Assembly (NCBI GenBank): GCA_016700015.1
Contig: CP064995.1
Location: 390,001 to 422,000 of the forward strand
DNA: 32,000 nt
From: Candidatus Saccharimonadota bacterium
GTDB lineage: Bacteria > Patescibacteriota > Saccharimonadia > Saccharimonadales > Saccharimonadaceae
Direction of reading: 5' to 3'
Positions 8,102 through 17,775 of this stretch are shown here, piece after piece (within the stretch, counting starts at the first letter, position 1; the number at the start of each line of letters is the position of its first letter). A model generated the notes under the pieces. The model saw nothing but the letters and a program-made list of their open reading frames with translations, did no database searches and had not been told where the DNA came from. The translations under genes and the position numbers were made by a program.

Positions 8102-8503
8102 ATGGCGACAACCAAAAATTACGACTACGGCCTCGGACGGCGCAAGAGCGCCACAGCACGCGCACGTTTGGTAAAAGGCAAGGGCGCCGTCACGATTAAT
8201 GACAAGCCCGCCGCCGACTACCTAGGGCAAAACAAAACTCTTCTTGCTGAGATCACCGACCCGCTGGCAATAGTTGGCAAACAGCAAGAATTTGATGTGA
8301 CTGTACGTGTAAGCGGTGGTGGCCTGTCAGGTCAAGTCGACGCTATTAAAATGGCAATCGCCAAAGCTATCACGGTTGGTCATAGTGACCTCCGTAGCAC
8401 GCTCAAAAAGGCCGAGTTCCTGCGCCGCGATCCACGCGAAAAAGAACGCAAGAAGTACGGCCTACGCAGCGCCCGAAAGCGCGAGCAATACTCAAAGCGC
8501 TAA
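8102..8503 (+). CDS. rpsI: 30S ribosomal protein uS9
   Basis: 133 aa. GRRK.A.ARARL..G.G...IN and the C-terminal RRD.RE.ERKK.GL..ARK..QYSKR. Confidence 0.96.
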   Translation: MATTKNYDYGLGRRKSATARARLVKGKGAVTINDKPAADYLGQNKTLLAEITDPLAIVGKQQEFDVTVRVSGGGLSGQVDAIKMAIAKAITVGHSDLRSTLKKAEFLRRDPREKERKKYGLRSARKREQYSKR

Positions 8504-8525
8504 CACAAATCATACTGTGCCGCAC

Positions 8526-8562
8526 AATGAATCTCCGATCGACTCGCGAGATTCATTGTTTT
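8526..8562 (+). terminator. Rho-independent terminator ending the r-protein/rpoA transcription unit
   Basis: Perfect 10-bp stem AATGAATCTC / GAGATTCATT with a 12-nt loop, followed by GTTTTG. Confidence 0.75.
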
Positions 8563-8568
8563 GCGGAG

Positions 8569-8577
8569 TGTTATAAT
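8569..8577 (+). promoter_or_regulatory. Extended -10 promoter TGtTATAAT, 7 nt before ATG 8584 (predicted leaderless mRNA)
   Basis: Perfect TGnTATAAT. There is no SD between it and the ATG. Confidence 0.5.
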
Positions 8578-8583
8578 ACCACT

Positions 8584-9657
8584 ATGGCATTCCCACCAGT
8601 CCCCGACTACTCAAAAACCACCGCGAACAGAGCAGGTCGCGCCTTAGCAAGCGGAAAGCTTACCGGCAAAGACTATAGAGACGCTGCCGAGATAGTCAAT
8701 GCGTGGAGGATATGTCACGCATATCCGCTTAATACGTTCAACGCAACACTTCGCAAGAAGACGACGAAATATAGAGGTGCAATCGTAGCGCAACGACTCA
8801 AACGACTCCCTACAATCATTGATAAGCTTCAGCGGCAACCCAACATGGACTTAACTCGCATGCAGGACATCGGCGGCGTGCGAGCAATTGTTAATAATCT
8901 GAACGAGCTCGCAGAGTTACGACATGATTATGAAGAAAAGGGCCGCTTTTCTCATGAGCTATTTGACGTAGACGACTATATCGGGAGCCCAAAACAGGAT
9001 GGCTACCGAGGAGTCCACCTGATATACAAATACAATAACTCTCTGGCGCGCAATAGTAAGGGCAACCCATCACAGTACAAGGGGCTTTTTATTGAGGTAC
9101 AACTTCGGACTTTATTGCAGCATGAGTGGGCGACTGCGGTCGAGGCAGTGAGCGTAATGCTCGGCCAGCACCTCAAGACGCAACGCGGAAATCGCTCGTG
9201 GCTGGAGTTTTTTGAATATATGTCCTCTATCTTTGCGATTATTGAGAAGTCGCCAGTTCTTAATAAGCACAAAAACCTTACTACTCAACAGATTACAGAC
9301 CAAGCGGCACAAGCAATCAGCGACCTCCACGTGATTGATGCGCTGGGTGGGTGGAAGCGTGCAGCACAGTTGATCGACACACACCATGTTGACAAACACT
9401 ACAACCTCATTGTACTTAACACGAAGGATAAAACTGTCCGGGTGAGACCGTATACCCGCAATAACCTGGTGGCTGCGTCCAAAGAGTACTCGCGCCTTGA
9501 GGAAGAAGCGCTGATTAACCCCGACCTCGACATTGTGCTCGTGGCAGCGGGTGGTATAAAAGAGCTAAAAAAAGCGTATCCAAACTATTTTCTCGATATT
9601 GAAAACTTTATCGAAAAAGTCAAAGACGTTGTCAAAGTTTCAAGGCGTGAGGTATAA
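8584..9657 (+). CDS. RelA/SpoT-homologue: small-alarmone-synthetase / toxSAS-like nucleotide pyrophosphokinase with about 150-aa C-terminal extension
   Basis: Synthetase-fold motifs RLKRLPTIIDKLQR, MQDIGGVRAIV, GYRGVHLIYKY, IEVQLRTLLQHEWA. No HD hydrolase, TGS or ACT regions. The track start 8527 lies inside the terminator hairpin, so ATG 8584 (MAFPPVPDY) is preferred. Confidence 0.85.
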   Translation: MAFPPVPDYSKTTANRAGRALASGKLTGKDYRDAAEIVNAWRICHAYPLNTFNATLRKKTTKYRGAIVAQRLKRLPTIIDKLQRQPNMDLTRMQDIGGVRAIVNNLNELAELRHDYEEKGRFSHELFDVDDYIGSPKQDGYRGVHLIYKYNNSLARNSKGNPSQYKGLFIEVQLRTLLQHEWATAVEAVSVMLGQHLKTQRGNRSWLEFFEYMSSIFAIIEKSPVLNKHKNLTTQQITDQAAQAISDLHVIDALGGWKRAAQLIDTHHVDKHYNLIVLNTKDKTVRVRPYTRNNLVAASKEYSRLEEEALINPDLDIVLVAAGGIKELKKAYPNYFLDIENFIEKVKDVVKVSRREV

Positions 9658-9897
9658 TACCATCAATGACCAGCTCAGATTTTCTCAAGAAGTTAAAGAA
9701 AGCCTACACGCTTAACAAAAAAGCGAGTTAGTTGACCGAGACTCGGTGCCGAGTCGCCCCACGCGTAGATGATTGCATGCCAAGGTTAGTTGACATGTGT
9801 TTAGTGTGTGCAGACGATTATTCGATATGCGGTAATGCCTATGCTTGCATTTGTATGCCGGCCTATACGACAATGGTAGCAAACGAATAGGAGAGGT

Positions 9898-11280
9898 ATG
9901 TCAGAAACGGGCCATTTCAAGGACGCTGGGCTGGATCGCTTGGCTAGAGACGGGAATAATGTTGCTCAATTTGCGAGTTACGATGAAACTGGGAACCCCC
10001 GCTACAGTCGTGTTGTAGGGCTTTCCCCAAACTATCAATTTAGCTCACTGGAAGAGGCAGTTGACTACCTGCTCGCCAACACCACTGAGCACTCGCTCAA
10101 TGTTCGTAGCTTTGCTCCCAATGATGCCAAGAGCAAACCTTTTGATTACGAACTAAAAACTAGTGAAGCGGTACTTGCCAGTCTACGCGCACGCCAAGCC
10201 GAGGGGCTCCACACAATTATCAATGAAACTGTCAGTATTCATGACGGCGGGGTGTCGGGTGTCGTTCATGGCGATGTTGTTGAGTTTGCGCCCCACGACA
10301 CGCCACGCTGCGTCGAGAAGCCAGGAACCGTCGTGCTGAGCCGCAAAATGGGCCGAAGTGTCATTTACCTTGTCTATGGCATTGTGCCGAAGTTTCCCAG
10401 TAGCCCGGAAATCCGACAAGAATTTAGTATTCATCCCCTACGCCATGGATTTCGTAATGAGCATACAATCGTATGGGAAACTGAACATCTAGATGCCTAT
10501 CCGGAGCGTGCAGACACACAATGGCCTAATCGATTTAGTGATATGCTAGGCGATAAAACATTTGGATTGATAGTGGCGAATCAAATTGGCTTACGAGTAC
10601 CCCGCACGACAGTATTCAATCGCACCGTGGCACCATTTACGTTCGGCGATCCGACCGGCAGCCCCGAGCCCTGGATCCGCACAGCCCCCAACCACCAAAC
10701 TCCAGGTAAATACACGACTGAAAGGGGATGGCTTGACCCATTCATGCTAATGCAGCGCGAAGATCCGACTGGTAAAAATATTGCCTCGATTTTGCGCCAA
10801 GATGGTGTCGATGCCAAATTTAGCGGCGCTTGTGCTATGGGCTCAGATGGTGAGCTGATTATTGAAGGCAAGCAGGGTTTTGGTGATAGATTTATGGTTG
10901 GTGAAGATAAAATGAACGATATACCGCCAGAAGTGCAAATGGCAATCGAGGACACCTACTATCAAGCCCAGCGCTCGCTAGGCCCCGTGCGTTTTGAATG
11001 GGTGTACGACGGTAAGCGCACATGGGTCGTGCAACTTCACCGCGGCGTAAGTGTTTCAAGCGGAACTACTATTTACCCTGAGGTTAGTGGTAGTACAGTT
11101 CGCTATATCGGCTATGATACGAGTCGGGGGCTAGAGAGCCTACGCGAAATGATTGGTAGCTCCGAGCCCGGGACAGGCATAATGCTGATCGGTGACGTCG
11201 GTATTACCAGCCACTTCGGCGACGTGCTACGAAAGGCACGCATACCGTCGAAATTATTACGTAAGGTAACTGATGCCTAA
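9898..11280 (+). CDS. PEP-synthase/PPDK-like phosphotransferase: unknown N-domain + ATP-grasp (PPDK_N-like) + C-terminal phosphohistidine swivel motif
   Basis: 460 aa with an AGGAGAGG RBS. LGDKTFGLIVANQIGLRVPRTTVF, GKQGFGDRFMVGE and VRFEWVYDGKRTWVVQLHRG resemble the PEP/pyruvate-binding ATP-grasp domain. GDVGITSHFGDVLRKARIPS resembles the GG.TSH.AI.AR..GIP swivel-His motif (His codon 11212-11214). Confidence 0.6.
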   Translation: MSETGHFKDAGLDRLARDGNNVAQFASYDETGNPRYSRVVGLSPNYQFSSLEEAVDYLLANTTEHSLNVRSFAPNDAKSKPFDYELKTSEAVLASLRARQAEGLHTIINETVSIHDGGVSGVVHGDVVEFAPHDTPRCVEKPGTVVLSRKMGRSVIYLVYGIVPKFPSSPEIRQEFSIHPLRHGFRNEHTIVWETEHLDAYPERADTQWPNRFSDMLGDKTFGLIVANQIGLRVPRTTVFNRTVAPFTFGDPTGSPEPWIRTAPNHQTPGKYTTERGWLDPFMLMQREDPTGKNIASILRQDGVDAKFSGACAMGSDGELIIEGKQGFGDRFMVGEDKMNDIPPEVQMAIEDTYYQAQRSLGPVRFEWVYDGKRTWVVQLHRGVSVSSGTTIYPEVSGSTVRYIGYDTSRGLESLREMIGSSEPGTGIMLIGDVGITSHFGDVLRKARIPSKLLRKVTDA

Positions 11281-12055
11281 CCACATTGATACTGTACTGC
11301 GCTCAACACTGGCAGAATGCACCGTTTCATGGTCAGAAGCCAAAACCAGCCCGCTTGACGCCTACGTGGACTTTCAGTGTCGACTTGGAAGCCTGGCGAC
11401 GCGGTATGAAGACTATATTAGTACCGCGATTACAAGTGGTGGGTACCGACGTGATTCTACGCTCAAGTATCGTGAAGTTGTTGCAAAAAACACCGACTAC
11501 GCGCTGATGATTGCCGATGAGTTCCATCGTAGAGGGCTTACTGATGCTGAGCTTACGCTTGATGCTGTTGCTCTAGGCAAAGTCGCCGGCTGGAAACAAA
11601 GCGATTTTTTGACATTCTTTTTAACCGCAATGGCGCGTCCCGTCGTACCTGGCCTTAGCTCACCAGAGTATCGCCACTTACTCGACATATATAATCACCC
11701 GCAGACCTACGACAAAGCAACCTTTGACGATGAGTCACTTAGGAATGATGTACGCCTACCACACTACCAGGCATTCGCTACAGAATATTGGCAGCGCACA
11801 AAAGTACTCGATGTTGCACCAATCGATAGATCAATCCGCGTAGCTGACTGGAACCAGTCGCTAGGCAGTCAAGCAGAAGAGCATTTTGCGCGACTTATCG
11901 GCATTCGCGTCGCCACGCCACAAATTATTACGTCGAGCTGTGATTTTAGCTTGCTAGACTTACCTCATGATCTTTCTACGAGTGTAAAAGAGTTACGGGA
12001 ACTCGGCGCCCATATCATTGCTCCGCCCGAAGCTTCAAAACTGGTATTAACATAA
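11273..12055 (+). CDS. Hypothetical 260-aa protein, translationally coupled to the phosphotransferase
   Basis: ATG 11273 overlaps the upstream stop by 8 nt (ATGCCTAA). Long ORF with no family recognised. Confidence 0.6.
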   Translation: MPNHIDTVLRSTLAECTVSWSEAKTSPLDAYVDFQCRLGSLATRYEDYISTAITSGGYRRDSTLKYREVVAKNTDYALMIADEFHRRGLTDAELTLDAVALGKVAGWKQSDFLTFFLTAMARPVVPGLSSPEYRHLLDIYNHPQTYDKATFDDESLRNDVRLPHYQAFATEYWQRTKVLDVAPIDRSIRVADWNQSLGSQAEEHFARLIGIRVATPQIITSSCDFSLLDLPHDLSTSVKELRELGAHIIAPPEASKLVLT

Positions 12056-12108: not shown

Positions 12109-12813
12109 ATGAAAATACTCATATTGGCCGCTACACATGGCAATGAACTCTTAGGACCCAAGCTTATTGAATACATGTTACGTAAACACCCGAGTCTCTT
12201 TGAGTATATTGAGTTTATCGTTGCAAACCCTCGCGCGCTTGCAAAACGTATTAGGTATACCGAATCAGACTTGAACCGTAGTTATGGGCTAGGAACTGAT
12301 ACTTATGAGCAGCGACGTGCAAATGACATCGAGGCGCATATCAAAGCCACGCAACCAGATATTGTTCTTGATATGCACACAACCGCCTGCGTACAGCCGC
12401 CGATTATGATCGTAGGTAACATAACCAATGCTACTGTTCGAGCATACTTAAGAAACTGTCACATCTCTACCGTATTACAAGTAAAGCCGCTACACGATAT
12501 CGCGACTATTACACCAAGCATTGTTGCGTACGAGATTATGAACCGTGATGTAACGACCAATGTTTTAGAGCAAATTTGCGAAGATTTAAATAAATTTTTG
12601 AATAACAAAGTCGAAAAAAAAGTCATTAATCTTTACCGTATGTCCGATAAAATTTATAAACGAGACATTACTGCAGCGCAGGCAAAAACATTTAAAAATT
12701 TCGAGATGAATGAATTGGGATTTATCCCAATTATGACAGGGAATAATTCATACAAAAAACAAACCGATTACCTAGGATTTAAATCAGCCGAACCGATCGA
12801 TCTGGTTCTCTAA
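12109..12813 (+). CDS. Succinylglutamate desuccinylase/aspartoacylase (AstE/AspA) family zinc deacylase
   Basis: MKILILAATHGNE, NPRA...R....DLNR, YE.RRA and DMHTT match the family metal- and substrate-binding motifs. ATG 12109 is preferred over GTG 12082. Confidence 0.75.
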   Translation: MKILILAATHGNELLGPKLIEYMLRKHPSLFEYIEFIVANPRALAKRIRYTESDLNRSYGLGTDTYEQRRANDIEAHIKATQPDIVLDMHTTACVQPPIMIVGNITNATVRAYLRNCHISTVLQVKPLHDIATITPSIVAYEIMNRDVTTNVLEQICEDLNKFLNNKVEKKVINLYRMSDKIYKRDITAAQAKTFKNFEMNELGFIPIMTGNNSYKKQTDYLGFKSAEPIDLVL

Positions 12814-13757
12814 CATCTAATTTCTGGATAAAGATCTGCGGTATTTTTTAGGGCAGAAAGAAGCGCCCATTCAAATCGCTCACGGTGGATCGACGTAACC
12901 ACAGTAATATTTGGGTGACGCTCGCTATATTTTCGTCGATCTGCTACTGACATCCCAAATGTATGCTCACCCTTTGTCTCGATAACTATGTCCATCTTCA
13001 CCGTCTTAAATGCTTTTTGATCCAAAAAATAAAAAGCGGCCAATGCATCATAAACAAGTGCGGCTTTCACTTTCTCATGCTTTGAAATGCCAGCGATAAA
13101 ATGTCGCATCATTTTATGTAGGTTAGCATATAGTGCTTTGCCCTTGAGTGAATCAAAAAGATCAAGCTGGATTTTAATTACGTTACATGGATCAAGAGGA
13201 ACTAATACCTTTGGACAATCGCTTCGTATTACAATATCTGCCGCCTCCGGGTCAACAAAAAAATTAAATTCAGCCACTCGATTTTTATTGCCAGGTGATT
13301 CAATCGCGCCACCCATAATAACTAGCTCTTTTATATTATTTTCAATACCTGGGTTTGATTTTAGTAGTTGAGCAACATTTGTTAATGGGCCGATAGTTAA
13401 GATACTAACCTCACCTGGATAGAGATTTAGATAGTGCTTCATTATAGACACTGCATCCTTGGACAGTGTATAGATAGTATTACTAACGTCTAAACCATCA
13501 ATCCCGCTATCGCCATGAACTTCAGCGGTGACTAACTTACGCCTAAGCGGCTTATCGGCACCCGAATGAATCGATATTTTTGAACCAACGAGGTCAAGTA
13601 CTGCCTGCGCATTACGTGTTACCTTTTCGATCGTAGCGTTACCAGCAACTGTTGTGATAGTTAATATATCAAATTGATTTGAACAGATCAGCAAGAGCAT
13701 GGCAAGGGCATCGTCGTGGCCGGCATCAGTATCAATAATAATTTTTTGCTTTCCCAT
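12810..13757 (-). CDS. Inosine/uridine-preferring nucleoside hydrolase family protein
   Basis: 315 aa. N-terminal IIIDTDAGHDDALAMLLL (DTD.G.DD..A signature). AAGGAG RBS; 1-nt gap to the upstream gene. Confidence 0.85.
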   Translation of the reverse strand: MGKQKIIIDTDAGHDDALAMLLLICSNQFDILTITTVAGNATIEKVTRNAQAVLDLVGSKISIHSGADKPLRRKLVTAEVHGDSGIDGLDVSNTIYTLSKDAVSIMKHYLNLYPGEVSILTIGPLTNVAQLLKSNPGIENNIKELVIMGGAIESPGNKNRVAEFNFFVDPEAADIVIRSDCPKVLVPLDPCNVIKIQLDLFDSLKGKALYANLHKMMRHFIAGISKHEKVKAALVYDALAAFYFLDQKAFKTVKMDIVIETKGEHTFGMSVADRRKYSERHPNITVVTSIHRERFEWALLSALKNTADLYPEIRC

Positions 13758-13758
13758 G

Positions 13759-14484
13759 CTACTCCTTTTCCTTCAGTATATCAGCAAATAATTCTTCTAC
13801 TGTATCGGCATAAAAATATTCTTTTTGCGATCTACCGTGCGCACCAATCAAGCACCCAAGTGCGCCTCTTTGCACCGCAGGCTCAATATCTACAGAGGGT
13901 TTATCACCAATAACAAGGGTTTTGTTAAGTGGTATCTTCATTTTTTTTGTAATAATTTCGAATATTCTTCCATCTCGCGTGGCCTTCGGCGGGTGGGCAT
14001 CGCTTTCATATCCAATCAACATGGCAAAATCATCTATTTTATAGTTTGACGCAAGTAATATTCGTCCACTTAACGATGTTGGGCTGCTTGTGAGCGCTAC
14101 AGTCTTAATATGTTTTTTCGCTAGCGCTCTTATAAGGTCTGAAACATGATGTTGATCGCTAAAATATCCTTTAGGATCCAGCTGCGTCATATGCTGATGA
14201 AGAATTGTGAAATTTGGAATCAACGGTTTCTGGCGGGGTAGGTATATGCTGATGTCGCCGGTAAATAGTGCTTGCTCAGCCCCAACCCCATGCTGACGGA
14301 ACTGATTTGCAACCTTTTCAGCTTTCGGTATTGAAATGTGAAAGTACTCTGCAATTGCTCGTTCGACTGCAAGCCCATATTGTTTATAGAAGTCTTTTCC
14401 AGTTGCACGAACAAGTGTGTCATCAACATCGCATATGATGAGCTCTACGTCTTTAAAAGCATTGGAATGATATTGGTGCCCCAC
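13759..14484 (-). CDS. HAD-superfamily phosphatase (5'-nucleotidase-like)
   Basis: 241 aa. Motif I LIICDVDDTLV (D.D.T), motif II TALTSS, motif IV VIGDKPSVDI. GTG start, 2-nt gap to the upstream gene. Confidence 0.8.
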   Translation of the reverse strand: MGHQYHSNAFKDVELIICDVDDTLVRATGKDFYKQYGLAVERAIAEYFHISIPKAEKVANQFRQHGVGAEQALFTGDISIYLPRQKPLIPNFTILHQHMTQLDPKGYFSDQHHVSDLIRALAKKHIKTVALTSSPTSLSGRILLASNYKIDDFAMLIGYESDAHPPKATRDGRIFEIITKKMKIPLNKTLVIGDKPSVDIEPAVQRGALGCLIGAHGRSQKEYFYADTVEELFADILKEKE

Positions 14485-14486
14485 GC

Positions 14487-16004
14487 TTATCCGCCCGCAA
14501 CATTGTTTGTTGCCGTCACATACTCTTTCATCTTTGCAGTGGCCGCTCCTGTATGGATAATCTCTAGGGCCTCACGTGTAGCCGCTCGTAGATAATCAGC
14601 ATTCACACGCCGCGTATCTGCATGTAGGGCATCGACACGATCTAGATATTTTCTTGTAAATATACCAAGACCGGCGGTCATAGCTAAATACATTGCTTTC
14701 GCCTCATCCCTGCCAGCAAGTGCATCTCGATTCGCGGCAAGGATAGCATCGACTTCATTTGGAACCATAAGACCATGCATTGTCATCACCGACAGTTGCC
14801 CTTCGGTAAAAAAGTCTGTCGGCCTTATCTCAAAAGTTCCTGCAAGTTCGCCGCCTCGCATAAACGCTGCCACTGTCGCATAGGGTGGTGGAGCAACCTC
14901 ATCGATCGCCACACTTTCACGTGCTTCAGGAGAATGGTAGTACGATTTTGGATCAAACATGTCAGGGTGAGCAACCTCTCGATCCGTTCCAAAGAATGCC
15001 ACACTATTATCGTACGTTTGAAATTTGCGTTTTGAGAGTATCTCAAGCGCCGAGATCACAGTGGCGGGATGGATTTTCTCGTTTACGCCGATGAAGCCAT
15101 TAGCAACTGTCTCAGGCGTTAGTGTATATGCGAGAGGACCAATGATATGGTTGATGGTTTCACCTTTAAGTCGATGTGAAAGTGTATGAAGCGTTCTCGT
15201 GTTGTGGCAACTCGACATCATTAGTCCCACTTCATCCAGAAGTTTTTGAAATGCTTCGGGATTATGAAAATCCGAGCGTGCACCAAGCGCCTCGACAGCA
15301 GACTGACCTGCTACTTTTGAGGTGTTTGGGTATGAGTGATGTTTGTGCGTTGCTCCATCGACTGCCAAGATTGCAGAAGACAATGTTGATAAACTAAAAA
15401 GTTTGGAGGTTTTACCAGTACGGCCATATCCTTTATCGCCACCCATACCGCCGAGAGCAATAACAGGTCGTTGGCTCTCTGTTCGTACAACCGTGTCTAA
15501 ATCAACTGTTGCGGCAACAACTCCAGCTATTTCTTCGGGAAGAAGACCGACGTACCCTTCTTTGGAAGACATGCCACTTAAAAGACTCGTTGCTTGCATG
15601 AGCTGCGTCTCACGTACATCTGACCGCCGAGTGGTACTAGAGGGAATCCAAAGCGGATATGCCGGTACTGGCGCATATTCTAATATTGATGAACGCACTG
15701 CTCTATTGAGCGACATGACGACAAAGGCAATGAGGCTATATGCTTCTTCGAAAGTAAGCTCGCCGCCATGCTTTAATTTTGCATCAATCCCATAGAATCC
15801 TGCCTCATAAAGCGGCGCAAGTTCATAGCTTTTTACTGCTTTTACTCGCTTGTCGAGACGTGAAAAGTAATCAGCACTTTGTGCAAGCTTATTAAGTGAG
15901 CTTGAGCAATCGATTTCCTCTTTATACCCCAGACCGTCAGTAATTTCTTGCTGGTAAGGGTAACCACTTAGATGAATCGTCGGGATGTTTCTATTTGCTT
16001 TCAT
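14487..16004 (-). CDS. TrpD-family (glycosyl transferase family 3) phosphoribosyltransferase-like protein with about 180-aa N-terminal extension
   Basis: LGGMGGDKG...FSLSTLSSAILAVDGATHKHHSYPNTSKVAGQSAVEALG parallels TrpD GTGGDG..FNISTA.A...A..G..VAKHGNR..SS.SGSADVLEALG. HRLKGETINHIIGPLAYTL parallels R.ELG.RT.FN.LGPL.NP. ATG 16004 (AAAGGAAA RBS) is preferred; ATG 16022 is the alternative. Confidence 0.7.
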   Translation of the reverse strand: MKANRNIPTIHLSGYPYQQEITDGLGYKEEIDCSSSLNKLAQSADYFSRLDKRVKAVKSYELAPLYEAGFYGIDAKLKHGGELTFEEAYSLIAFVVMSLNRAVRSSILEYAPVPAYPLWIPSSTTRRSDVRETQLMQATSLLSGMSSKEGYVGLLPEEIAGVVAATVDLDTVVRTESQRPVIALGGMGGDKGYGRTGKTSKLFSLSTLSSAILAVDGATHKHHSYPNTSKVAGQSAVEALGARSDFHNPEAFQKLLDEVGLMMSSCHNTRTLHTLSHRLKGETINHIIGPLAYTLTPETVANGFIGVNEKIHPATVISALEILSKRKFQTYDNSVAFFGTDREVAHPDMFDPKSYYHSPEARESVAIDEVAPPPYATVAAFMRGGELAGTFEIRPTDFFTEGQLSVMTMHGLMVPNEVDAILAANRDALAGRDEAKAMYLAMTAGLGIFTRKYLDRVDALHADTRRVNADYLRAATREALEIIHTGAATAKMKEYVTATNNVAGG

Positions 16005-17178
16005 TGCTAGTTTTCCTTTCATTAGTTCTTTTGTGCCGAATAGTATTTTGCGAATGTTTGATATCTTGGATGAATGAGTTGAGTTGTTCTTTTGTTACGC
16101 CCGGCATACAAATCACGTGGCTAACACCTCCGTAGGTAGCCAGTTGCCATTTATGAATAATCTCCTTAGGCGGCTGCTTTATCACTACAGTAAATGCAGC
16201 TTCATTTTTCCACGCTGGCCAGCCGATACAACGGAGTTCGGTATGTAAATAACGTGCTAATTCCATCGAATTGATCGCTCGTTTGCGCAGGCCATCGGTT
16301 CCAAGTTTTTTAATGGTGTACCAAAGCATGATTGGAGTATGGCCATTTCGTGATCCGGAAATTGTCGAATCTGGCGTGCCGGTATACAGTGCGCTACGAA
16401 CCACCTTGTCGCGATAACTTTTACGCGTAATCACCACTCCGCTCGGCATCGGGCATCCGATAAATTTGTGTCCGCTGATACTGATCGCATCTGCACCGTC
16501 AGCAAAATCAAACGGATGATGGGGAATTGCAAAGGCTGTATAGACGCCTGCCAGCGCTGCATCACAGTGCACAAATGATGCATCATCAAAGCCGAGGTCA
16601 TCGAGGATGTGCTGAATAATGTACACATTGTCCTTTGCCTCGGACATTGTCGTTCCAATCGTCGCGACGACAATCACCTGAGTAGCGCCGGATTTTATTA
16701 TATTTTTCTTGAGACTGCTATAGTCCATCTCGCCCGACTCTTCAGATGCGACCGCAATTCCTTGCATGCCGAGTATACCGATATTCTTCGGTATACTATA
16801 GTGAGCGCTATTACTATAAAATACCGGCGCTTCAGGATATAGTTCGCGGGCAACATAAAGCGAATACAAATTTCCTTCGGTACCACCATTTGTAACATAA
16901 CCCCATCGATCAGATTTGGGAGCATGAAACAAATCAGCAAAAAAATCGACAACTTCACGTTCTAGTCGTTTGGAATGATTTGCATGGAGCGGACTCACAT
17001 ACGGATCGCCAACATTATTGAGTAAATATTGGAAGAACGGTAGTAGCTCAGAATAATCGAAATCGACCGAACCCGGAAATCCTATAAAATATGGATAATC
17101 CTTGCGGATCTCCGCCATAAATGCTGTCAAAGTATGGTGATCGGCACGGTTCAATTGGCTTTCTTTTCGCTTAATCAC
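15991..17178 (-). CDS. Group II PLP-dependent decarboxylase, histidine-decarboxylase type
   Basis: 395 aa. Collinear with Gram-negative HDC motifs: GFPGS.DFDY, WGYVTNGGTEGN, GEMDY, ATIGTT, HCDAALAG, PFDFADGADAISISGHKFIGCPMPSGVV (PLP lysine), ISGSRNGHTP. GTG start after a GAGAGG RBS. Confidence 0.75.
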   Translation of the reverse strand: MIKRKESQLNRADHHTLTAFMAEIRKDYPYFIGFPGSVDFDYSELLPFFQYLLNNVGDPYVSPLHANHSKRLEREVVDFFADLFHAPKSDRWGYVTNGGTEGNLYSLYVARELYPEAPVFYSNSAHYSIPKNIGILGMQGIAVASEESGEMDYSSLKKNIIKSGATQVIVVATIGTTMSEAKDNVYIIQHILDDLGFDDASFVHCDAALAGVYTAFAIPHHPFDFADGADAISISGHKFIGCPMPSGVVITRKSYRDKVVRSALYTGTPDSTISGSRNGHTPIMLWYTIKKLGTDGLRKRAINSMELARYLHTELRCIGWPAWKNEAAFTVVIKQPPKEIIHKWQLATYGGVSHVICMPGVTKEQLNSFIQDIKHSQNTIRHKRTNERKTSNESK

Positions 17179-17241
17179 ATAATACCTCTCTTATCACAAT
17201 ATCCCCATCGGTTGACGGGGAGCAATAAATAGCACTCACAA

Positions 17242-17646
17242 CTACCAACCAGTACTCTTTGGGCTATTATGCCTGGGAATAGTATAATAAGAAATCTTGT
17301 CTTCCGGTTCGGACTCGGGCTGATTGCTTTGGGCACGGTGTTGCATATTCCGTGCCAGTCTCATAAGATCCAAAAAAATGTCCAACAGGTCCTCATTACT
17401 AATTGGACCTTCGTTTTCGGCCATAATATGCTCAAGTACCTCGTTCTCACGCCGAATATTAAAGATAGGTCTTTTCTCTGCTAATTTCAAAGCGCCAGCC
17501 GCAAGCGCTAGTTGCATACGACGGTTGAGCAGCTTTACGAGCTCAGAGTCAACCTTGTCAATCTCTTCGCGTACTGCAAGAATATCTGCCGCACCCTTCG
17601 CAACTTCTGTCATAGACTTATACTCCCAATATAATACTGAGTACAT
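17242..17646 (-). CDS. AroQ-class (type II) chorismate mutase-like protein
   Basis: LAVREEIDKVDSELVKLLNRRMQLA...K......I....RE.EVL matches the CM type II helix pattern. ATG 17646 (AAGGAAG RBS) or ATG 17613 (GGGAG RBS). The track start 17739 is unlikely. Confidence 0.65.
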   Translation of the reverse strand: MYSVLYWEYKSMTEVAKGAADILAVREEIDKVDSELVKLLNRRMQLALAAGALKLAEKRPIFNIRRENEVLEHIMAENEGPISNEDLLDIFLDLMRLARNMQHRAQSNQPESEPEDKISYYTIPRHNSPKSTGW

Positions 17647-17775
17647 GCTACCACTTCCTTTAGTCTGTATGCAAGAGCCATCACCATGAACAGCATAGTA
17701 ATATGCACAACGACGACTGCTCGTAATCCAGGAGGGCATTTGTTATGATAGGAAAGACGAGGAGGCATGCGCTTT

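Follow-up and report, generated by a model that had tools for sequence, protein, structure and literature searches.

Genes A and B form an overlapping pair on the forward strand of a 32,000-nucleotide stretch of a Candidatus Saccharimonadota genome (GenBank assembly GCA_016700015.1, contig CP064995.1, positions 390,001 to 422,000), referred to below as the window. Because the pair recurs in at least 10 bacterial phyla, is carried on plasmids and is sometimes fused into one protein, it is considered a real, uncharacterised module. In the explanation that we favour, the A/B core would be a conserved, horizontally mobile two-enzyme module acting on a nucleoside- or nucleotide-like molecule. A would be a His-relay phosphotransferase and B a nucleotide or nucleoside enzyme resembling nucleoside 2-deoxyribosyltransferase (NDT), both within a mobile accessory module that probably serves in conflict. 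We give this composite reading an even chance of being correct. An earlier note on this DNA had described A as a compact ATP-grasp and swivel-histidine phosphotransferase coupled to a partner of 260 amino acids (aa), and both open reading frames (ORFs) and their 8-nt overlap were recovered where it had placed them (Table 1).

Linkage of A and B across genomes

In most other phyla a protein of ∼210 aa stands beside A in place of the longer B. An alignment uniting the B family with these proteins was used to build a hidden Markov model (HMM), with which 84 loci containing an A homolog were searched. A B-like ORF was present within ∼3 kb of A in 65 of the 84 loci, in varying order. In 21 loci (cyanobacteria, Bacteroidota, Nitrospiraceae and others) it directly precedes A, and in 20 (every Saccharibacteria case and many Pyrinomonadaceae) it directly follows A on the same strand; in 2 it is next to A on the opposite strand, and in 14 (Gemmatimonadota and Thermoanaerobaculia) it lies 1.6–3.2 kb downstream, in most of them beyond an intervening protein of ∼830–970 aa. 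In the remaining 8, all alphaproteobacterial, the two are fused in one frame, with the B-like part N-terminal to A; in the Mesorhizobium fusion (L075, 7410–9344), for example, “…PGWEYSIGCVTEF…” runs directly into “…NVAQFVSY…GLTSHFADVLRR…”. Further long-B genes, examined separately, also follow A (at locus L104 the upstream ORF ends in “…VGITSHFGDLLRKSSIPS”). The co-occurrence in other genomes that the earlier note had expected of a coupled pair is therefore found, and extends to gene fusion. Between the window and its closest relative, A is 88% identical and B 63% identical, and B appears from these sequences to evolve about three times faster than A.

Two Agrobacterium plasmid loci (L091, 8356–10639; L100, 8164–10456) carry an A homolog without a DUF4406 gene, DUF4406 being the family to which the ∼210-aa partners are assigned below. 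No unannotated DUF4406 gene was found in the gaps upstream of A on these two plasmids. At both loci A adjoins a recurring pair consisting of an ‘adenylosuccinate synthetase’-like protein of 533–537 aa and a 229-aa hypothetical protein, and genes for a UvrD helicase, a PD-(D/E)XK nuclease, a metallophosphoesterase, an integrase and VapBC lie nearby.

Gene A: ATP-grasp fold and candidate phospho-histidine

Homologs of A form more than 2,841 clusters at 90% identity, nearly all of them ∼455 aa long and matching over the full length, so A is taken to be a real gene. Every cluster is named ‘hypothetical’ and has no precomputed Pfam domain. The family spans at least 10 bacterial phyla as well as plasmids, with ∼313 genomes carrying A, and is not specific to the Candidate Phyla Radiation (CPR). 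A itself gave no match at E≤1 to Pfam, NCBIfam or PADLOC, and neither its sequence nor a profile of 42 family sequences matched the PDB; phosphoserine phosphatase (E 0.027) and ICT1, which surfaced in the PDB searches, were rejected as noise.

An AlphaFold2 model of A (pLDDT 92.6, pTM 0.89) was built on the A-family alignment (A1) and compared with the PDB using Foldseek. Of 89 matches at E≤1e-3, the best 50 were all ATP-grasp enzymes (probability 1.00), and on this model the middle of A has an ATP-grasp fold. The best-scoring matches were ATP-grasp carboxylate-amine ligases (PruB, MdnB/MdnC, D-Ala-D-Ala ligase [Ddl] and RimK), which aligned over ∼180–220 columns with E values from 8e-6 to 3e-4, identities of 8–16% and TM-scores, normalised to A, of 0.20–0.27. 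The longest alignments were those to rifampin phosphotransferase (270–301 columns) and pyruvate phosphate dikinase (PPDK; 282 columns).

Profile-profile comparison by hhalign extends this likeness towards phosphoenolpyruvate (PEP) synthase (PPS). Residues 352–455 of A are collinear with residues 303–436 of E. coli PpsA (E 0.002), with “VRFEWV…WVVQLHRG” placed on “MDIEWA…FIVQARPE” and “VGITSHFGDVLRKARIPS” on “GGRTCHAAIIARELGIPA”. This alignment, the statistics of which are weak, pairs E367 and Q379 of A with the ‘DIEW..VQ’ of PpsA, and H439 of A with PpsA His421, which we take to be the catalytic phospho-histidine. Against a profile of nine PEP synthases the overall E value was 3.6e-4, and residues 356–384 of A on their own aligned to PEP synthase residues 303–334 with E 5.4e-5 and probability 67%. 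The ‘E-W…Q’ pattern presumably marks a metal site of the PPS/PPDK type as opposed to the ‘E-x-N’ of ligases, an assignment that follows published work on PPDK.

The four motifs quoted in the earlier note are all present in the translation of A (LGDKTFGLIVANQIGLRVPRTTVF, aa 217–240; GKQGFGDRFMVGE, aa 324–336; VRFEWVYDGKRTWVVQLHRG, aa 364–383; GITSHFGDVLRKARIPS, aa 435–451), and the codon for the histidine that it singled out is where it said. Among 204 family members K220, R261, E367, Q379, H381, S438, H439, D442 and R445 never vary, and T437 is threonine in 203. The C-terminal part of the model consists of a strand (426–431), a loop, a helix beginning at H439, and a second strand (451–454). 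This modelled order, in which a strand and a loop lead into a helix that opens with the histidine, would resemble that of phospho-carrier domains.

Like PEP synthase, PPDK and rifampin phosphotransferase, A has in its model an ATP-grasp domain followed by a small domain with a T-S-H histidine at a helix start. It differs from these enzymes in having no similarity to them that HMMER detects, in an ATP-grasp part about half the size of PPDK_N, and in a His domain of ∼65 aa that, unlike those of the dikinases, ends just past the His helix and one strand. The PEP/pyruvate TIM barrel and the rifampin-binding domain of known dikinases are both absent, the protein ending at residue 460. In addition, the D and R of the PpsA pattern D-x-E…Q-x-R are replaced in A by R365 and H381.

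The N-terminal ∼204 aa matched nothing in sequence searches of Pfam, NCBIfam, PADLOC and the PDB, nor the N-terminus of PEP synthase, which agrees with the earlier description of this region as unassignable. Its position ahead of the ATP-grasp domain gives A a domain order that is new relative to the dikinases. Across the 204 homologs it is as conserved as the catalytic part, with (nearly) invariant residues at K8, D9, N21, N68, R70, N109/E110, S120/G121, E129, P136/R137, R173/E175 and W193/E194. Residues 60–200 (window 10075–10497) and 250–385 (window 10645–11052) show the same order of strands and helices and contain look-alike motifs (NVRSF and WIRTA; EFSIHP..WE.E and RFEW..Q.H). These likenesses hint at an ancient duplication of the ATP-grasp half; as an explanation of the N-terminal domain this was not supported (hhalign E 0.81).

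Several results count against a dikinase-type assignment. When A and 41 homologs were searched with HMMER, no match to PPDK_N, PEP-utilizers or any ATP-grasp Pfam model was obtained even at E≤10, so that the check proposed in the earlier note came out negative and the assignment rests on the fold together with weak profile-profile evidence. The His segment alone does not align significantly to the PEP synthase profile (E 0.028), and the C-terminal domain falls short of the usual length of a swivel, or PEP-utilizers, domain (PF00391). Of the earlier claims, that of an ATP-grasp domain holds as to fold; its PEP-synthase-like type is suggested by the alignment of E367 and Q379 and finds nothing in Pfam. 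The phospho-His carrier motif is present as a near-invariant T-S-H that aligns to PpsA His421, but has neither significance as an isolated segment nor a match to PF00391.

The same results count in favour of an alternative in which A would be a conventional ATP-grasp ligase or kinase that operates without a phospho-histidine relay. Such an enzyme would form an acyl-phosphate intermediate and ligate a carboxylate group with an amine or a thiol, the target being perhaps B or a peptide, and the part of His439 would be structural or that of a general acid-base residue. The ligases among the best Foldseek matches favour this alternative, as does a C-terminal domain that is truncated relative to swivel domains and tightly packed in the model. 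However, A carries the PPS/PPDK-type pattern with E367 and Q379 invariant and not the ligase ‘E-x-N’, its G-x-T-S-H…R segment is collinear with the region of PpsA His421 and correctly ordered after the ATP-grasp domain, and its longest structural alignments are to rifampin phosphotransferase and PPDK. A also has N-terminal and C-terminal His domains that the ligases do not. We consider a conventional ligase or kinase unlikely. We read A as an ATP-grasp enzyme that most resembles PPS, PPDK and rifampin phosphotransferase and that combines a minimal His domain with a novel N-terminal domain in a new domain order; His-relay chemistry is plausible for it.

Gene B: relationship to DUF4406 and NDT-like proteins

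A word-indexed search yielded only five relatives of B. A profile made from B and these five closest relatives recovered 144 representative clusters among 1.84 billion proteins, and B is accordingly regarded as a real gene. Aligned by hhalign, the B family and the family of ∼210-aa partners gave a probability of 94.7% and an E value of 5.8e-8, with Y48, T54, G56, N73, Q109, G198 and E202 invariant in the joint alignment. The ∼210-aa family in turn matches Pfam DUF4406 (PF14359), its best member scoring 27.5 bits against a gathering threshold of 22. Of the 43 members of alignment A4, 37 (all members other than those of the B type) match DUF4406, two of them above the gathering score. The family also matches phrog_355, annotated as “nucleoside 2-deoxyribosyltransferase”, and on Burkholderia and Rhizobium plasmids RefSeq labels the ∼210-aa neighbour of A a ‘DUF4406 domain-containing protein’.

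B and the ∼210-aa partner proteins share the positions Y-x-S-x-x-x-T-x-G, N, W-x-Q and S-x-G-x-x-x-E. B differs from DUF4406 proteins in a helical insertion of ∼65 aa (modelled as helices 131–141, 148–152 and 158–176 with high pLDDT) and in a longer N-terminal helical region. The invariant Glu202 stands at a position that would be that of the catalytic glutamate, or nucleophile, of NDT-type enzymes. From these comparisons B is judged to be a divergent, long-form relative of DUF4406/NDT-like proteins, and the ‘unknown family’ of the earlier note can be replaced by this assignment. No activity is known for DUF4406, and a literature search for the name returned only three incidental mentions.

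Direct matches being absent, the assignment of B depends on the likeness between profiles, on motifs in common and on A being the genomic partner of both forms, and several results pull the other way. B itself has no direct match in Pfam (E≤1) or PHROG; NCBIfam and PADLOC were likewise negative. An HMM built from the 210-aa proteins alone detects just 3 of 142 long-B representatives, so the link between the two forms requires profile-profile methods. The AlphaFold2 model of B (pLDDT 81) gave no significant Foldseek match in the PDB or BFVD; the top BFVD rows are enriched in models of phage deoxyribosyltransferases and DUF4406 proteins, with probabilities up to 0.9 and E values of 0.07–1.6, below significance. 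Designed TIM barrels, which appeared when B was compared with the PDB by sequence, match through a short repeated segment and were dismissed as spurious.

Two metagenome proteins join the long-B domain to another domain that acts on nucleotides, a cytidine/dCMP deaminase domain in P0277 and a CYTH domain in P0361. B-type domains thus pair with different nucleotide-acting enzymes and not only with A, and we count this nucleotide theme in favour of the proposed substrate class.

Proposed mechanism and genomic contexts

In the mechanism that we propose, the ATP-grasp domain of A would bind ATP through the region that contains K220, R261, E367 and Q379. His439 would probably be phosphorylated and then hand the phosphoryl group to a substrate held by the conserved N-terminal domain of A, by B, or by both. 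B, which retains the Glu motif, would probably bind the same nucleoside or nucleotide, or cleave or exchange its base. The genes, the fold of A, the invariant residues, the co-occurrence and fusion of A and B and the mobile settings are shown by the data, whereas the phospho-His chemistry, the nucleotide substrate and the role in defence are inferred from them.

Several kinds of third gene recur near A and B. These include proteins with 2–6 predicted transmembrane (TM) segments, AAA+ ATPases of ∼730–840 aa whose likeness to IetA/TRIP13 is confined to the AAA domain, and proteins of ∼1,130–1,190 aa with a PD-(D/E)XK domain, or UvrD and PD-(D/E)XK pairs. An ABC exporter lies upstream in one group of 8 loci. 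A homologs were found on 14 plasmid records, 10 of them conjugative. On the Burkholderia gladioli plasmid the cassette is flanked by IS110 insertion sequence (IS) elements. It lies beside HipA in Rhizobium and among BrnT, HEPN/MNT and a transposase in Aphanothece; in Agrobacterium A is next to an integrase and VapBC. Because of the membrane, AAA+, PD-(D/E)XK and UvrD partners, the plasmids, and the islands rich in IS elements and toxin-antitoxin (TA) genes, a conflict function (anti-phage or abortive infection, or toxin-immunity) is considered the most likely. The patchy distribution across phyla, the fluid gene order, the fusion and the interchangeable “effector-like” partners fit such a function, and the variety of third genes with their IS, TA and integrase surroundings fits a mobile conflict module at least as well as it fits antibiotic modification.

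Two observations concern individual loci. Downstream of A in Gemmatimonadota and Thermoanaerobaculia (L004, 9592–14770; L014, L028, L034 and L066) lie large, barely annotated proteins of two classes, one of ∼860–910 aa with no Pfam match or a weak Metallophos match, the other of ∼1,130–1,190 aa with a C-terminal PD-(D/E)XK domain; PDB sequence searches with the ∼900-aa and ∼1,130-aa proteins found nothing. On B. gladioli plasmid bgla_1p (L090) a DUF6884 gene (8426–8878), which matches the PADLOC candidate PDC-M57A with E 1e-8, directly follows the AAA/DUF4406/A cassette.

Precedents exist for effectors of the kind that B might be. An NDT-like domain acts as the defence effector of retron Ec86 (bioRxiv 10.1101/2023.08.16.553469), and a TIR-like N-glycosidase/DUF4062 system, ‘Swarozyc’, provides another (bioRxiv 10.64898/2026.05.01.722283). 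In these systems NDT-like or TIR-like effectors deplete adenine derivatives or NAD+, and A/B, like them, is found in mobile, island-type regions; however, they have no ATP-grasp/His partner, and the comparison is one of kind, not of sequence. It is possible, although we put this forward only tentatively, that A and the DUF4406-like protein form the core of an unrecognised, widespread family of nucleotide-targeting anti-phage (abortive-infection) systems. An NDT-like N-glycosidase would then be controlled by the phospho-histidine relay of A or receive its substrate from it. Effectors particular to each lineage (membrane proteins, AAA+ ATPases, PD-(D/E)XK/UvrD nucleases) would be added to this core, and the bacterium of the window would have a minimal two-gene form.

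A different kind of conflict system, a type VII-like toxin-antitoxin pair, would make B a nucleotide- or NAD-degrading toxin that A silences by phosphorylating B or its product, until phage infection or loss of A frees B. The translationally coupled layout with overlapping stop and start, the TA genes that surround the pair in several genomes, the toxicity of NDT-like effector domains in retron Ec86, and a fast-evolving B beside a slow-evolving A all accord with this. However, long-B genes without A and A genes without a B-like gene both exist, and with 460 aa and three domains, one of them extra and highly conserved, A would be a large antitoxin; we regard a toxin-antitoxin pair as very unlikely.

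The reading of A/B as a relay phosphotransferase and NDT-like enzyme in a conflict module must also accommodate less favourable findings. Of the 84 A loci, 19 show no B-like gene, and some long-B genes have no A; among the long-B genes examined separately, one does not follow A. With a mean column identity of 58% across phyla, A is unusually conserved for a defence protein. No A homolog was found in phages. A, B and the Burkholderia A and DUF4406 proteins gave 0 matches in PADLOC-DB v2, where only neighbours match (PDC-S33, AAA+ ATPases resembling IetA, and PDC-M57A). In Saccharibacteria the pair occupies a stable chromosomal place, always behind the rplM-rpsI operon, with no membrane or nuclease partner seen nearby, and in the window genes of the nucleoside-salvage type lie close to it.

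Some of these findings suit a small-molecule module, along the lines of the earlier note, which would make the cell resistant to a nucleoside-type antibiotic or xenobiotic, modify such a compound, or serve a specialised nucleoside salvage. Like rifampin phosphotransferase, A would phosphorylate the compound; its base would be cleaved or exchanged by B, and the membrane partners would act in transport. The structural matches to A include rifampin phosphotransferase, and strong conservation of A across phyla is expected of fixed small-molecule chemistry. The multi-TM third genes and the upstream ABC exporters could serve in transport, and resistance genes are likewise patchy and plasmid-borne. 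The chromosomally stable Saccharibacterial pair, near an IU-nucleoside hydrolase, a HAD hydrolase and a Glycos_transf_3 protein, points the same way, as does the Glycos_transf_3 gene behind B at another locus (L103). The large AAA+ ATPases and the PD-(D/E)XK/UvrD helicase-nucleases, however, fit poorly, as do the TA, IS and integrase surroundings and the faster evolution of B; moreover, the neighbours that had suggested such a module are not conserved (see below). We consider a small-molecule module somewhat improbable and retain the conflict module as the preferred reading.

Gene layout and neighbours in the window

The coordinates of the features described above are collected in Table 1. The ATG of B (11273–11275) falls within the final codons of A (…CTG ATG CCT AA…), and the stop codon of A, TAA, occupies 11278–11280. 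In the close relative at locus L001 the overlap is 4 nt. A purine-rich GGAGAGG (9890–9896) stands immediately 5′ of the ATG of A. Promoter-like sites in the region are no more numerous in total than in shuffled sequence, and the site at 9629–9658 should be read as a consensus match only. The untranslated gap before A is 240 nt (9658–9897), which is long for a genome of ∼1 Mb; examined for a riboswitch or structured leader, it gave 0 Rfam matches and ordinary folding (z-score −0.36).

Table 1. Features of the A/B region (window coordinates).
Feature	Coordinates	Strand	Description
Gene A	9898..11280	+	460 aa; three-domain enzyme (predicted); family without Pfam or NCBIfam model
A N-terminal domain, aa 1–204	9898..10509	+	Alpha/beta; putative substrate-binding or second catalytic domain; without detectable relatives
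A ATP-grasp domain, ∼aa 205–385	10510..11052	+	Carries GDK220, R261, E367 and Q379; predicted by Foldseek and hhalign
A C-terminal small domain, aa ∼390–460	11065..11277	+	G-[VI]-T-S-H-[FL]-G-D-x-L-R motif; putative phospho-histidine carrier
His439 codon of A	11212..11214	+	Candidate phospho-acceptor; H in 204/204 homologs
Gene B	11273..12055	+	260 aa; apparent divergent long form of the DUF4406/NDT-like family
A/B overlap	11273..11280	+	8 nt (ATGCCTAA); A stop over B start, read from sequence
Helical insertion in B, aa ∼124–187	11642..11833	+	∼65 aa; absent from 210-aa relatives (alignment A2)
Glu202 codon of B	11876..11878	+	W-x-x-S-[LN]-G-[CS]-x-x-E motif; invariant in both B and 210-aa proteins
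Promoter-like site	9629..9658	+	11/12 consensus matches; 240 nt upstream of A

The upstream neighbour of A (8527–9657, + strand) encodes a protein of 376 aa in which Pfam recognises a RelA/SpoT synthetase domain (E 9e-16). Along its whole length this RelA/SpoT homolog (RSH)-type protein matches PDC-S33, a single-gene defence candidate of PADLOC (E 1.5e-117), which we count in favour of the conflict reading. In relatives, the slot between rpsI and A is occupied by HTH_38 and an unknown protein, by a PP2C phosphatase or by a peptidase M20; other genes intervene between the AstE/AspA-type deacylase gene and B; and the downstream gene is an alpha/beta-hydrolase. A single module comprising the RSH gene (PDC-S33), AstE/AspA and A/B was considered and rejected on account of this variation. 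Since neither gene is conserved next to A/B in relatives, RSH and AstE/AspA do not define the module, and the suggestion in the earlier note that A, together with the RSH and deacylase genes, might form an antibiotic-modification module was not borne out.

Downstream, on the − strand, lies a block of lower GC content (12810–17739; 0.40–0.45, against ∼0.50 around A/B). It contains the IU-nucleoside hydrolase and HAD hydrolase genes, a gene for a 511-aa Glycos_transf_3 protein, a decarboxylase dependent on pyridoxal phosphate (PLP) and a chorismate mutase, and is absent from the syntenic region of the relative at L001. Glycos_transf_3 also follows B at L103.

Significance

The folds concerned are known; for the A family, its domain order, its minimal His domain and its partnership with a DUF4406-like protein, no description was found in the literature. 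Literature searches on DUF4406, PF14359, PDC-S33, and ATP-grasp enzymes with phosphohistidine or dikinase and defence returned nothing relevant. The family is large (more than 2,800 clusters when grouped at 90% identity) and reaches at least 10 phyla and conjugative plasmids, yet no Pfam, NCBIfam or PADLOC model covers it.

If the chemistry proposed for A is correct, the family would represent a third way to build a His-relay phosphotransferase of the PEP-synthase type, in which a minimal ATP-grasp domain and a substrate domain of a new kind are arranged in a new order. DUF4406 would gain its first functional context, as the partner, and sometimes the fusion partner, of an ATP-dependent enzyme. 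Copies in cultured Burkholderia (such as WP_013699834, the A protein of B. gladioli BSR3), Rhizobium and Mesorhizobium make these proposals directly testable. Saccharibacteria have very small genomes, and their phage defences are poorly known. If the role in conflict is correct, A/B would be a new nucleotide-directed defence family of which one form is found in these bacteria.

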